A stretch of DNA of 64,000 nucleotides from Nitrosopumilus sp. (GTDB taxonomy: Archaea; Thermoproteota; Nitrososphaeria; Nitrososphaerales; Nitrosopumilaceae): positions 1,248,001 through 1,312,000 of the forward strand of contig OZ241981.1 in the NCBI GenBank assembly GCA_965204345.1. Direction: 5' to 3'. Made by a program: the position numbers and the translations under genes. Shown here piece after piece: positions 4,012-43,414 of the stretch. The notes beneath the pieces are model-generated. The model worked only from the letters and a program-made list of their open reading frames with translations, did no database searches and was not told the origin of the DNA. Position 1 is the first letter of the stretch; every line of letters begins with the position of its first letter.

Positions 4012-4551
4012 ATGGGTTATTCAGATGTTTCATTTATGAAACCTTTTATTCTTTGGATGACTGGACTTCCCTGTTCAGGAAAGACAACCATCGTAAAAGA
4101 TTTGCAAAAAGATATTCCAAATTTGGCAATGCTTGATGGTGATGAACTAAGAGAATGGTTCTCACCAAAAGATTTTTCAAAAGCAGGGCGTGATGAACAC
4201 AACAAAAAAGTTGCTCATTTAGCCAAGCTTTTGTTAAAACACGGTGTTCCAAGTGCCGTATCTCTAGTATCTCCATACATAGAGAATAGAGAAAATGCCA
4301 GGGAGATTATTGATGCAGGTGATCAGTTTGTAGAATGTTATGTAAAATGTTCTTTAGAAAAATGTGAGGAAAGAGATGTCAAAGGCATGTATGCCAAGGC
4401 TCGAAAGGGAGAAATCAAGGGATTTACGGGAATTGACGATCCTTATGAAGCTCCAGAAAAGGCAGACCTCATTATTGACACAGAAAACGAACCGCTCTCA
4501 GATTCTGCAAACAAAGTAAAGGACTTCCTTAAAGGAAGAAACCTACTCTAA
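4012..4551 (+). CDS. cysC: adenylyl-sulfate kinase
   Basis: TGLPCSGKTT, LDGD, RDVKGMY, FTGIDDPYE; true start may be the second Met (4036). Confidence 0.95.
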   Translation: MGYSDVSFMKPFILWMTGLPCSGKTTIVKDLQKDIPNLAMLDGDELREWFSPKDFSKAGRDEHNKKVAHLAKLLLKHGVPSAVSLVSPYIENRENAREIIDAGDQFVECYVKCSLEKCEERDVKGMYAKARKGEIKGFTGIDDPYEAPEKADLIIDTENEPLSDSANKVKDFLKGRNLL

Positions 4552-5358
4552 TTTTTTAAATTCTTCAACTATTTTATCATGAACCAATCCGTTGGTTGCT
4601 AGAATTCCATTTTGATGATACACATCTTTGTTGTTGTATGTGATATCATTTCCTAGCATATCAGTCATTCTACCACCAGCTTCCACAATGATACAATATG
4701 AAGCGGCCGAATCCCACTCTTTCATTTTATTTGTAGTTGTAATGTATGCTTCAGCCTCGCCAGAACTAATTTTTCCAACTTTTAATGAGCTTCCAATACT
4801 TGTGAAATCATCAATGCCTAATTTTTTAATAAATAACTTTTCTGCATCTGACAGATGGTGTCTTGATCCAACAGTTCTACATTTGCTGACTTCTGAAACC
4901 TGAGTCACAGCTATTCTCTTCCATTCTCCATTTGAATATCTAAATGCACCCTTATTTTTTTGTGCAACAAACAGTGTCTTTTCGGTAGGCCAATTAATCA
5001 CTCCAAGAATTGGTTTTTTATCTTCAATTAAGGCAATCATCACGGTAAACTCACCGGTTTTATCAATAAAGTCAGAAGTTCCGTCAAGAGGGTCTACAAT
5101 CCAAACCTTATCCTTTGATAATCGATCCGAATCATCCTTATCCTCCTCAGATAAAATCACATGTTCTGTTTGTGAGAGAATTTTCTTAATAATTTCATTG
5201 CTCTTTAAATCTGCATCAGTAATTGGCGAATTGTCATTTTTTGTAGCTGCCTGATAATCTCCATTATAAACCTCCAAAATTGCATCTCCTGCTTTTATTG
5301 CAGCTTGAACTGCCATGTCTAATTCGGGTATTTTATTAGAAATGGGAATAATCTCCAA
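4543..5358 (-). CDS. cysQ: 3'(2'),5'-bisphosphate nucleotidase
   Basis: SPITDAD, SEE, VDPLDGT, GSSLK and EWD motifs. Confidence 0.92.
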   Translation of the reverse strand: MEIIPISNKIPELDMAVQAAIKAGDAILEVYNGDYQAATKNDNSPITDADLKSNEIIKKILSQTEHVILSEEDKDDSDRLSKDKVWIVDPLDGTSDFIDKTGEFTVMIALIEDKKPILGVINWPTEKTLFVAQKNKGAFRYSNGEWKRIAVTQVSEVSKCRTVGSRHHLSDAEKLFIKKLGIDDFTSIGSSLKVGKISSGEAEAYITTTNKMKEWDSAASYCIIVEAGGRMTDMLGNDITYNNKDVYHQNGILATNGLVHDKIVEEFKKLE

Positions 5359-5614: not shown

Positions 5615-6370
5615 TCATTTTACTGATTCTCCTCCGTCTACAGTGAGAATTGCACCAGTAATCCACGATGCATCATTTGAGGCAAAGTACAGAACTGCCT
5701 TTCCAATTTCTTCAGGCTGGCCTATTCTGCCCATTGGATGTTCACTATTCATAAAATCTTTGTCTTTCTCAGTTTTTAAAAACGGCTTTGTCATATCCGT
5801 ATCAACTACCCCCGGACAAATACAATTCACTCTAATCTTATTTTTAGAATATTCAAGCGCCCAGCATTTTGTTAGTAAAATTAATGCGGCCTTTGATGCA
5901 GAGTATGCATCTACATTGAATCCTTGGTATGCCTTTATGCCTGCATCTGATGAAATATTGATTATTGAACCAGACGTCTTTTGCAAATATGGAATTGCTT
6001 CCTTTGTAAATCTAAACTGTCCTGTAAGGTTTACATCCAATACTTCATTCCATTCATCTTCACTAATCTCATGCAGTTGCTTTATTTCTGGAAATATTCC
6101 TGCATTATTTACAAGAATATCAAGCTTGCCAAATTTTTCAATTATTTTACCTACCACATTTTTTACATCGCTTGTTTTTTTAATATCTGCTGAAATTCCA
6201 ATACCATTTGGAATTTCTGTTACTACCTTTTTTAGTCTCTGATTATTTTTTGCAGTTATGATTACTATTGCTCCATTTTCTGATAAAATTTTTGCAGTAG
6301 CTAGTCCAATACCACGACTACCACCAGTAACTAGAGCAACCTTGTCTGATAATTTCAATAATATTTGCAT
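5615..6370 (-). CDS. short-chain dehydrogenase/reductase (FabG-like)
   Basis: TGGSRGIG, NNAG, YSASK. Confidence 0.93.
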   Translation of the reverse strand: MQILLKLSDKVALVTGGSRGIGLATAKILSENGAIVIITAKNNQRLKKVVTEIPNGIGISADIKKTSDVKNVVGKIIEKFGKLDILVNNAGIFPEIKQLHEISEDEWNEVLDVNLTGQFRFTKEAIPYLQKTSGSIINISSDAGIKAYQGFNVDAYSASKAALILLTKCWALEYSKNKIRVNCICPGVVDTDMTKPFLKTEKDKDFMNSEHPMGRIGQPEEIGKAVLYFASNDASWITGAILTVDGGESVK

Positions 6371-6492
6371 GTGAATTTAGTAATTTATAGATCCATCAAT
6401 TATACATAGACATCAAAAATTACATAAAATATAATATTTTTTTATAAATTTTTGCACTAAATGTTAAATAGCTAAAGTTACTACAGTAATTA

Positions 6493-6624
6493 ATGTCGAA
6501 AGATATAATTGCTATCGACTAGTCTTGCGTAGCCCCGCAGAACGAAAAAGGTGATCAGACATTAAATGTCTACAAGGAGAGGAAATCTCTCAAAGTTCTG
6601 TAACAAAGGGGTTTACGCCTTTTT
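6493..6624 (+). ncRNA. candidate structured small RNA (family not recognised)
   Basis: TTAAATA at 6463-6469; nested helices 6527-6536/6608-6618, 6537-6543/6595-6601, 6557-6562/6566-6571, 6577-6581/6587-6591; T-run at 6620-6624. Confidence 0.55.
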
Positions 6625-7093
6625 AATTTTCTAAAATATCTACTGACACTGAACCCAGCAGATTTTCATTTGGGTCTATGCTAATTGCAACTTGTTGAGA
6701 TTCTAAAATTTCAAATTTTTTGACTCCGGCATATTCCCATGTATAATATTCTGAGATTTCTGTTTTGTGTAATGTATTTGTTAGCTTAAAATCTTCAGCG
6801 AAATTTATACTGGTACCAACCAAGTTAATCGTTAAAATTTCTGGACTGCTTCCATTTGGAACAAATCTAAAAACATATTCTCCTTTTTGAATAGTGAATG
6901 TGTCTCCATACGTTCCATCAACGTAAAGTTTAGGATTTGCAAGCGTTACATGAAATATAGCGTAATTTTCCTTTTCACTAGTCTTATCTGATGAAAAATT
7001 TACCAAGCCAACTGCTATGATAATTATTATTGGAATAATTATTATTGGAATAATTATTATTTTTTTATTCATTAAAATACACATAGAATTCAA
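6623..7093 (-). CDS. membrane-anchored hypothetical protein
   Basis: N-terminal hydrophobic anchor followed by a beta-rich domain. Confidence 0.75.
   Translation of the reverse strand: MNSMCILMNKKIIIIPIIIIPIIIIIAVGLVNFSSDKTSEKENYAIFHVTLANPKLYVDGTYGDTFTIQKGEYVFRFVPNGSSPEILTINLVGTSINFAEDFKLTNTLHKTEISEYYTWEYAGVKKFEILESQQVAISIDPNENLLGSVSVDILEN
7021..7061. repeat. 15-bp tandem repeat (TAATTATTATTGGAA x2.7) in the anchor-coding region
   Basis: exact copies at 7021-7035 and 7036-7050, partial copy 7051-7061; encodes IIIIP repeats in frame. Confidence 0.85.
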
Positions 7094-7442: not shown

Positions 7443-7605
7443 ATTCAATTCAATACTCATTTCATTATTTTCAAAATTTGCTTTTTTTTAAACAATGAAG
7501 ATTGCTTAAAAGGAATTTTAAATGCTAACTTTAGTTAGTAATTTTTTATGTCCTGTAAACCATTCTTTACACAGGAGATTAAGTAGATACTCTAAAATCA
7601 AACTC

Positions 7606-8250
7606 ATGCCTAGTTTATCCAACAAATGGTCCCAGCAACCACGGGCAGGAATTACTGAAAAAATTAATGATACAATCAAGCCTAAAGGGGCTTTAAAACC
7701 ACGAGTACAGGAGGGCATTAAAAAATTACAAGTACAAATTAAAAAATTAGATACAATGTTGACAAGTTTGCAGGAACGTGATGCAAAACTGTTCCAAAGA
7801 ATCGTGGATGCAACCCAAAAACATGATACTCAAACTACCAAAGTTCTTGGAAATGAACTAGCAGAAGTACGAAAAGTTACAAAAATTTTGAGTAGTGCCA
7901 GAATAGCATTGGAACAGATTGAATTAAGATTAACCACATGCAGTGATCTTGGAGATACAGTAGTAGCAATTATGCCTACAATGGGATTGATGAAGAATAT
8001 CAAGTCATCACTTGGTAAAATTATGCCAGGTGCCGAACAAGAAATCGGTCAAATGGCAGAAATGTTAGGCGGTTTTATGACAGAAAGTTTCTCAGGCGAT
8101 GCAGCATTTGGCATGGATGAGACAACCAGTGCAGAATCCGAAAGCATCTTAAAGGAAGCAGCAGCAGTTGCAGAAAGTTCTGCAGGCCAAATGTTCCCCT
8201 CAGTTCCAACTGATACACAAGAAGAAGCTTCTACAACCAAATTCTTGTAA
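7606..8250 (+). CDS. ESCRT-III / Snf7 family protein (CdvB paralogue)
   Basis: NELAEVRKV, LEQIELRL and DLGD Snf7 core; start moved to ATG 7606 by alignment with the paralogue at 32798-33451 and TATA at ~7579. Confidence 0.9.
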   Translation: MPSLSNKWSQQPRAGITEKINDTIKPKGALKPRVQEGIKKLQVQIKKLDTMLTSLQERDAKLFQRIVDATQKHDTQTTKVLGNELAEVRKVTKILSSARIALEQIELRLTTCSDLGDTVVAIMPTMGLMKNIKSSLGKIMPGAEQEIGQMAEMLGGFMTESFSGDAAFGMDETTSAESESILKEAAAVAESSAGQMFPSVPTDTQEEASTTKFL

Positions 8251-43340: not shown

Positions 43341-43414
43341 TGCGGAGTACGGGATTTGAACCCGTGACCTTCAGCTTGGGAAGCTGACGTCATACCAGCC
43401 TAAACTAACTCCGC
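43341..43414 (-). tRNA. tRNA-Gly (CCC), intronless, CCA not encoded
   Basis: GCGGAGT/ACTCCGC acceptor stem, TCAGC-TTCCCAA-GCTGA anticodon arm, GGTTCAAATCC T-arm. Confidence 0.97.

Follow-up and report, generated by a model that had tools for sequence, protein, structure and literature searches.

A predicted family of structured small RNAs with a conserved leaderless micro-ORF, and a sibling family, in one archaeal family

The window analysed here, by which is meant the whole 64,000-nt stretch of DNA, contains a compact plus-strand element that very likely represents a previously uncatalogued small-RNA gene family carrying a conserved leaderless micro-ORF at its 5' end, and that has a sibling family; the existence of the genes rests on sequence comparison, and their expression and function are inferred. 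Comparison of homologous loci shows a two-module RNA, composed of a 5' module (micro-ORF and hairpin P0) and a three-way junction of about 100 nt (P2, P3 and P4) closed by the 10-bp stem P1. The family is referred to below as type A and its sibling as type B. The ends of the predicted RNA were placed from promoter spacing and a T-run, and are thus inferred from sequence alone. The features of the window that concern this RNA are the following.

5615-6370, minus strand: short-chain dehydrogenase ORF, the other neighbour of the RNA gene
6464-6470, plus strand: TATA box TTAAATA, the promoter, seen in the sequence
6480-6492, plus strand: YTAYA motif and pyrimidine-purine initiator just 5' of the ATG (..CTATA..TAAT T[A/G]ATG in the upstream alignment of 99 loci)
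6493-6624, plus strand: predicted RNA, type A copy 1, about 132 nt, from fold and covariance models
6493-6522, plus strand: leaderless micro-ORF ATG..TAG of nine codons, MSKDIIAID* (ATG 6493-6495, TAG 6520-6522)
6495-6519, plus strand: 5' hairpin P0, 6495-6502 pairing with 6512-6519 (GTCGA at 6495-6499, TCGAC at 6515-6519), from fold and covariation
6527-6536, plus strand: 5' strand of the closing (outer) stem P1, GCGTAGCCCC, from fold and covariation
6537-6543, plus strand: 5' strand of the second stem P2, GCAGAAC, from fold and covariation
6544-6556, plus strand: purine-rich junction strand J2/3, GAAAAAGGTGATC, variable between genera
6557-6571, plus strand: variable hairpin P3, AGACAT-taa-ATGTCT, from covariation
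6577-6591, plus strand: hairpin P4, GAGAG-gaaat-CTCTC (family motif GAGG-NNN-UCUC), from motif conservation and covariation
6595-6601, plus strand: 3' strand of P2, GTTCTGT, from fold and covariation
6608-6618, plus strand: 3' strand of P1, GGGG-T-TTACGC, GGGGTTTACGC, from fold and covariation
6620-6631, plus strand: T-rich stretch TTTTTAATTTTC (T-run 6620-6624), presumed archaeal oligo-T terminator, its function being inferred
6623-7093, minus strand: convergent gene c0, an ORF without a Pfam family, its stop codon (6623-6625) lying inside the T-run of the RNA

An earlier note on this stretch had listed a 5' hairpin, an outer and a second stem, two hairpins and a T-run; all are present, and the multi-branch structure that it proposed is exactly the minimum-energy fold of 6493-6624 (+). 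Its GC-enriched island in an AT-rich gap is confirmed (GC 0.40-0.45 in the RNA stretch, against 0.13-0.20 in the gap upstream), as is its placing of both neighbouring genes on the minus strand. The TTAAATA box that it put at 6463-6469 is real and lies one base further on, at 6464-6470. The leaderless micro-ORF, the multi-copy family with its sibling, and the overlap of the terminator with the convergent stop codon are absent from it.

The fold of 6493-6624 (+) has a minimum energy of -38.0 kcal/mol (z = -3.53), equalled by none of 200 shuffles, and the minus strand of the same stretch gives a weaker fold (-33.3 kcal/mol, z = -2.73). A structure model for type A, with five helices (P0-P4) and 37 pairs, was written on 55 full-length aligned copies from the genus. 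In the MAFFT alignment of these copies, 93.0% of cells are paired, compared with 35-44% when the 3' partners are slid, and both-sided changes occur in 13 of the 37 pairs, a level reached by 1 of 500 shuffles. In an alignment of 99 homologues to the model, the corresponding figures are 93.5% paired, against 36-47% when slid, and both-sided changes in 23 of the 37 pairs, and none of 500 shuffles reaches any of five measures. The 99-copy alignment was fitted to a covariance model and therefore leans to the structure, a bias that is absent from the 55-copy MAFFT alignment. Covariation support for the fold is also obtained from a third set of homologues (69 diverse copies).

Across the 99 homologous loci, compensatory changes are seen in all five helices, with differences in how each helix is maintained. 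Hairpin P0 has both-sided changes in 5 of 8 pairs, with 84% of cells paired; P1 has them in 5 of 10 pairs, with 95.4% of cells paired; and P2, nearly invariant in sequence inside the genus, has them in 5 of 7 pairs across genera, with 99.6% of cells paired. P3 has both-sided changes in 6 of 7 pairs and a loop that is free to vary in length and sequence. The P4 motif GAGG-NNN-UCUC is the most conserved motif of the family (134/139 unique copies), and its outer pairs covary (G-C 79, A-U 13 in the 99 homologues). Helices P1, P2 and P4 are kept in sequence as well as in pairing, and the junction strands differ between genera. Among paired cells, G-U and U-G together number 328, versus 124 for A-C and C-A, an excess that favours the plus strand.

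Of 141 copies, 121 have a TTAAATA box, exact or with one mismatch, whose first base lies 27 nt ahead of model position 1, and in 11 more the box is displaced from there by no more than 1 nt. The conserved upstream pattern reads ..AAAT-N-TTAAATA.., followed by YTAYA and T[A/G]ATG, and the box is visible in all 99 printed loci (70 nt each). The reading of 6480-6492 as a proximal element and initiator is inferred from general knowledge of archaeal promoters. The box is kept where the neighbouring genes differ, and so belongs to the RNA and not to an adjoining gene; its fixed distance amid varied neighbours argues for an own transcription unit and against a UTR. At the other end, 121 of 141 copies have a 7-nt segment with at least five T that begins no more than about 20 nt from the CGCC end. 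The fixed TATA box, the G-U excess and the 3' T-rich stretch together make an own plus-strand transcription unit very likely, with its ends inferred. The loop of P0 contains TATAA, and this was rejected as the true TATA box, since the start would then fall inside P1, whose fourth pair covaries. A scan for bacterial-type promoters and terminators, uninformative for an archaeon, gave no terminator here and only sigma-70-like hexamers in the AT-rich gap.

The convergent gene c0 encodes a hypothetical protein of 143-156 aa whose N-terminus appears hydrophobic by eye; it has no Pfam family, and its nearest ESM Atlas clusters contain only 'hypothetical protein' entries from Nitrososphaerota. It is the tail-to-tail neighbour of the RNA in 52 of the 99 loci, distant genera included, with a varying upstream neighbour, and in 45 of these 52 no more than 3 nt separate its stop from the model end. 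With the c0 stop inside the T-run of the RNA, the two transcripts would be expected to overlap or collide, a deduction from gene arrangement in which the transcript ends are inferred. About half of the copies have other neighbours and no adjoining c0, so the pairing with c0 cannot be the general function of the family; an added cis effect on c0, for copy 1 only, remains possible. In public RNA libraries, one metatranscriptome contig falls on the RNA (6520-6762, depth 4.6, 100% identical, strand unknown). It takes in the RNA core together with 140 nt of c0, matches neither of the predicted ends, and speaks neither for nor against the predicted 6493-6624 transcript. Three metatranscriptome runs were available as assembled contigs only, in which uncovered parts are meaningless; two further contigs lie in the dehydrogenase gene.

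No known RNA class accounts for the element. Rfam 15, run on the whole window at the gathering score, reported only a tRNA (43341-43414). At E<=10, window 6350-6700 gave two chance hits, both outside the RNA body, and 20 homologous loci gave three weak hits, none on the RNA; no ribozyme family matched the RNA. ARAGORN found no tRNA or tmRNA gene in window 6300-6800. Identity with 5S, SRP or RNase P RNA was rejected because the genome's own copies lie elsewhere (79.4, 103.7 and 195.8 bits, above the cut-offs). C/D box sRNAs carry a C box (RUGAUGA) and a D box (CUGA) near their ends, and H/ACA sRNAs an ACA (ANA) box 3' of a basal stem. Of 139 unique copies, none contains RTGATGA, 68 contain CTGA in scattered places, and only 3 have ACA in their last 12 nt; both classes were rejected. 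A riboswitch or cis-leader does not fit by gene arrangement and conservation pattern: in the window, as in most loci, the next gene downstream points towards the RNA, the T-run comes directly after the closing stem, and it is the helices that are conserved, with junction strands that differ from genus to genus. For a viral origin, viral contigs were scanned with an exact pattern, with 0 matches.

Several local motifs noticed by eye were likewise rejected. A hammerhead-like core, a K-turn in the P1/P2 bulge and a resemblance of ACGAGAGGA to the sarcin-ricin loop fail because the needed residues are not conserved or not unpaired. Kissing between the P4 loop and P0 finds no consistent complements in the second copy, and pairing of an A-run with the 3' U-tail is excluded because 17 bp of helix hold the tail too far from the junction. 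Complementarity of AGGTGATC / AGGUGAUC (6549-6556) to the 3' tail of 16S rRNA is carried by only 6 of 139 unique copies and is no family feature.

The RNA is undescribed in the literature searched, including passages of PMC5069720, PMC13475601 and PMC3840354 (the supplementary TSS tables of PMC5069720 were not covered), and no description of small RNAs of the host lineage was found in the searchable literature. The earlier note's remaining claims can be set against these results. Its view of the element as an independent RNA and not a UTR is supported by the fixed plus-strand TATA box among varied neighbours, the transcript of about 130 nt itself remaining inferred. Its remark that G-U pairs favour the plus strand held, as did its failure to find a match to tRNA, 5S, SRP or RNase P. 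It had held that an Rfam hit would remove the novelty, which stands in the absence of a family at the gathering score or at E<=10, and that homologous loci should show compensatory changes, which they do. The RNA-library evidence that it had looked to is limited to the one unstranded contig, from which neither strand nor ends can be read.

The family was followed across genomes by DNA search and with covariance models. The DNA search found the stretch in 35 of 36 same-genus genomes, usually in two copies, and in 0 of 24 genomes of other families. The second type A copy in the window's own genome (G000:C1:47468-47605) is 70% identical. Covariance models R1 and R2, the latter a broader model from 69 diverse copies, match the window copy at G000:C1:1254491-1254622 (window 6491-6622) with 130.6 and 114.6 bits. 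Within the window's family, R1 has hits in 131 of 151 genomes, representing 25 of 27 genera; the count includes three unpublished genomes, used in the tally only, and there are 1-3 type A copies per genome. R2 adds a 26th genus, and the last missing genus consists of small genomes (0.8-0.9 Mb, 0/2). Outside the family, the RNA was found in 0 of 127 genomes from 19 other families of the order under strict filters, in 0 of 5 complete genomes of other families at E<=1, and in 0 of 25 genomes from other orders of the class. These out-of-family genomes are samples, and absence means that the RNA was not found in those searched; the E-values of the home-built covariance models are rough, as a result of shortened calibration. 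Among the genomes searched, the family thus appears confined to one archaeal family, and it is very likely a real, independent and previously uncatalogued family of plus-strand RNA genes. The host lineage is likely Nitrososphaerota, as judged from the Atlas clusters nearest to the c0 protein, and the host family is apparently a widespread archaeal lineage.

The sibling family, type B, was found through weak R2 matches. It shares with type A the TATA spacing and a homologous closing stem (GCGYGG...CGCGCC), and has a different interior. At E<=0.001, its model R3 has matches in 48 of the family's 151 genomes, from 9 genera, a tally in which two unpublished genomes are counted and in which at least two of the five weakest matches are cross-hits on type A loci. 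The copy in the window's own genome lies at G000:C1:1872005-1872125, and types A and B together amount to 1-4 genes per genome. The type B structure also covaries (both-sided changes in 9 of 29 pairs, 96.8% of cells paired, matched by 0 of 500 shuffles). Most type B copies lack a P0-like hairpin, and all 30 copies keep a start (ATG 25, GTG 5), a length of 8-9 codons and a stop; in three of them, a 1-nt gap and a 2-nt gap jointly restore the frame.

In type A, the micro-ORF begins with ATG in 133 of 139 unique copies, and 131 of these 133 reach an in-frame stop after 8-9 codons (nine codons in 125 copies, eight in 6). The stops are TAA in 99, TAG in 27 and TGA in 5, and a non-stop replaces the stop in only 2 of the 133 ATG-bearing copies. 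Four genera contribute the six 8-codon copies, in all of which the distance from start to stop is 3 nt less; this segment shows 3-nt length changes only, whereas the P3 loop is rich in 1-nt and 2-nt changes. Of the six copies without ATG, four from one lineage have TTG or GTG as the next in-frame codon. Exceptions to the frame are loci L145 and L147, which run for 12 and 15 codons, L149 and L151, which lack the ATG, and L160, the sole copy examined from a GC-rich genus, which has neither ATG nor stop. The criterion that the frame be kept through indels and through start and stop substitutions is met by both type A and type B.

The position of the ATG relative to the promoter is that of a leaderless transcript. 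Genome-wide, relative to 345 TTAAATA boxes, the ATGs that open ORFs with 80 codons or more gather at downstream distances of 28-35 nt, with 16 at 28 nt and 10 at 29 nt, and offsets of 15-27 nt have 0-2 long-ORF ATGs each; leaderless or near-leaderless mRNAs are therefore usual in this genome. The ATG of the RNA lies 29 nt after the first T of its TATA box, on the long-ORF peak, and so meets the criterion of TATA-to-ATG spacing for a leaderless transcript, the transcription start itself being inferred.

The peptide is not conserved, with 77 distinct peptides among 131 micro-ORFs. Mean entropies at unpaired positions are 1.00, 1.24 and 0.83 for codon positions 1, 2 and 3; there is no third-position excess, and therefore no ordinary coding signature and no sign of purifying selection on the peptide. 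Substitutions in the micro-ORF track the pairing of hairpin P0. It may be observed that in type A the micro-ORF coincides with covarying P0, and that the conservation of its start, stop and length could possibly be in part structural or promoter-related. The micro-ORF is nevertheless rated as selected because type B conserves frame, start and stop independently of the P0 hairpin. It is judged likely that the micro-ORF is a selected, ribosome-engaged feature whose peptide sequence is free to vary, ribosome engagement being an inference.

The reading preferred here, to which a probability of about 0.55 is assigned, is a gene for a stable, structured sRNA of about 130 nt whose micro-ORF couples it to translation; expression and function are both inferred. 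Transcription would proceed from the RNA's own strong TATA promoter, starting at, or one base before, the conserved AUG, and would end at the oligo-T, which shares bases with the c0 stop codon. The junction domain would be an RNA body that binds protein or acts in trans by other means; P2 and hairpin P4 (GAGG-NNN-UCUC) resemble a protein-binding platform, an inference for which no partner or target has been identified. Ribosomes would load on the 5'-terminal AUG as on the leaderless mRNAs of the organism, translate a peptide of irrelevant sequence, and terminate with 3-5 nt left before P1. A ribosome at termination occupies about a dozen bases further on, and with the stop so near P1 it would therefore have to open the closing stem. 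Ribosome availability would then affect how the RNA folds, how its 3' end is formed or how stable it is. This specific mechanism of translation coupling is inferred, and is put forward as a tentative proposal with well below an even chance of being correct. A bolder reading, which is no more than possible, takes types A and B as a superfamily in which the start-stop micro-ORF serves as a built-in ribosome sensor gating domain folding, termination or survival.

Among the rival explanations, the one that survives best is a purely non-coding RNP scaffold or base-pairing sRNA, in which the AUG would be the initiator or 5' end, the stop a purine-rich linker, the 30-nt length a consequence of P0, and the frame incidental. 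This remains possible. In its favour, P0 covaries in 5 of 8 pairs; codon positions 1 and 2 are substituted as often as position 3; the peptides number 77; loci L149 and L160 retain the hairpin and lose the frame; and sequence-conserved helices such as P2 and P4 are typical of protein-bound RNAs. Against it, 133 of 139 copies retain the A and U of the ATG, which are unpaired; any of the three stop codons may serve as the stop, with a non-stop in just 2 of 133; and length changes are of 3 nt only, including the compensated 1-nt and 2-nt gaps of type B. Moreover, the frame is intact in all 30 type B copies, most of which lack P0, and their start changes only to GTG, and the ATG occupies the leaderless start position, where ribosomes are expected to see it.

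A cis role on c0, whether through antisense or polymerase collision by the RNA or its read-through, or through pairing of a c0 3' UTR with the RNA, is considered unlikely. It is supported by the convergent c0 in 52 of 99 loci, 45 of which have the stop no more than 3 nt from the model end, and by the RNA-library contig that bridges the RNA core and c0. However, the second copies present in most genomes and the type B copies of seen context are not beside c0, yet keep promoter, fold and micro-ORF; covariation maintains the RNA's own fold, which plain antisense would not need; and the bridging contig is shallow and of unknown strand. Less plausible still is an mRNA for a bioactive peptide of 8-9 residues, with the structured domain as a stabilising 3' UTR. 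Conservation of start, frame and stop across both sibling families, and the leaderless position of the ATG, would fit this reading, but the supposed UTR is far better conserved than the peptide, which occurs in 77 variants without third-position excess, and the reading is very unlikely. A minus-strand element, as a structured 3' UTR or terminator of c0, is all but excluded. In its favour, the minus strand also folds (-33.3 kcal/mol, z = -2.7), the structure begins right past the c0 stop, and the contig spans both. Against it, the pairing shows G-U over A-C by 328 to 124, the plus-strand TATA box is fixed in 121 of 141 copies, and about half of the copies have no adjoining c0.

The preferred reading, a structured sRNA coupled to translation by its micro-ORF, may be compared with several known systems. 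SgrS/SgrT, RNAIII/delta-haemolysin and SR1/SR1P are bacterial dual-function sRNAs that encode a short peptide. The likeness to SgrS/SgrT, RNAIII and SR1 lies in the combination of a structured RNA body and a short frame in one small transcript, translation being inferred in the present case. By contrast with the bacterial examples, the archaeal frame has 8-9 codons, is leaderless at the extreme 5' end, encodes an unconserved peptide and has no known target, and no sequence or Rfam relation connects the two. The trpL-type attenuators share a very short ORF that ends just before a long stem and U-run, a layout in which a ribosome at the stop codon would block stem formation. Unlike these, the archaeal RNA has no co-directional downstream gene in the window and no run of regulatory codons, and where attenuators have alternative terminator and antiterminator hairpins it has a sequence-conserved three-way junction; in archaea, termination is not known to require a hairpin.

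With 5S rRNA (RF00001), the new RNA has in common a size of about 120 nt and a three-way junction closed by a stem joining the ends of the body, but it has much shorter arms and a 5' extension, and is not matched by RF00001 at E<=10; the actual 5S gene of the genome lies at G000:C1:1509181-1509300 (79.4 bits). The Hgc RNAs of Methanocaldococcus are ncRNAs of GC-rich islands found by composition. They resemble the predicted RNA as stable, structured archaeal RNAs without known function in a GC island within an AT-rich gap, and differ from it in that it belongs to another archaeal lineage and has no Rfam match.

Near-universal presence in the family, a consensus promoter, and 1-3 copies in addition to a sibling suggest a core cellular function that annotation pipelines have missed. 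A leaderless micro-ORF ahead of a structured RNA body is an unusual architecture, which makes the hypothesis of a translation-gated stable RNA testable; to our knowledge, no translation-gated stable RNA of such a kind is known in archaea. If the ribosome-sensor reading were true, the activity of the RNA would report the translational capacity of the cell. The covariance models would permit annotation of the RNA in genomes and in stranded metatranscriptomes. Within the window's own genome, 22 sites combine a TTAAATA box and a start with an ORF of at most 20 codons, and the three RNA genes have the lowest fold energies over the next 140 nt (-44.7, -38.7 and -38.0 kcal/mol, versus -8.8 to -32.6 for the other sites).

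The predicted structured small RNA (type A) has a sibling family, type B, of ~123 nt, with matches in 48 of the 151 family genomes (E<=0.001), including a copy in the window's own genome (G000) that lies outside the window. The spacing from the TTAAATA box in type B is as in type A, and the micro-ORF architecture of a start codon, 8-9 codons and a stop is kept in 30/30 type B copies. The closing stem of type B is homologous to that of type A, the internal hairpins differ, and covariation is present in the type B structure; one of its internal hairpins is GAGGAG-AAUG-CUUUUC, with invariant G-U pairs. Tandem copies of the RNA, on the same strand and ~300 nt apart, occur in one genus, and in the tandem pair the micro-ORF has 9 codons in one copy and 8 in the other.

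RNA loci and other features (G000 is the window's own genome; G172 and G194 are relatives' genomes)
G000:C1:1872005-1872125, type B copy outside the window
L155-L159 and L164-L193, type B loci
G172:C184:9890-10719, tandem locus L130
G194:C1:1604173-1604997, tandem locus L131
Window 4543-5358 (-), neighbouring gene
Window 7522-8250 (+), neighbouring gene
Window 43341-43414 (-), tRNA (Rfam, 65.7 bits)

The convergent hypothetical gene (6623-7093) has its stop codon within the T-run of the RNA (window 6620-6631). The two genes keep this tail-to-tail arrangement, no more than 3 nt apart, in 45 of the 52 loci that have the convergent gene as neighbour, and across distant genera despite a changing upstream neighbour. 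A direct repeat (..ataattattattggaataattattattggaataattattatt..) at window 7017-7060 lies in the convergent gene's 5' part and encodes the protein's N-terminal run of isoleucines and prolines.

Across the whole G000 genome, the ATGs of long ORFs concentrate 28-35 nt downstream of exact TTAAATA boxes, with peaks at 28 and 29. On sequence evidence alone, this clustering points to common use of leaderless or near-leaderless mRNAs by this organism. At G000:C1:420498 (+), outside the window, a further TTAAATA box has an ATG 30 nt downstream that opens a frame of 8 codons (MTLILKKA). GC content over the 140 nt after this site is 0.40, and the stretch folds with an energy of -26.6 kcal/mol. The site is possibly an additional micro-ORF transcript.

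The junction strand AGGTGATC (window 6549-6556) is complementary to the 3' tail of this genome's 16S rRNA, GATCACCT. Because AGGTGATC is found in only 6/139 unique type A copies, this complementarity is probably not a family feature.

The tRNA is the sole Rfam match at gathering score in the 64-kb window. Among the neighbouring genes is one whose product belongs to the inositol monophosphatase family (E 1.2e-51), and a 242-aa ORF nearby has a sub-threshold Snf7 match (23.6 bits, versus the Pfam cut-off of 27.3 bits).
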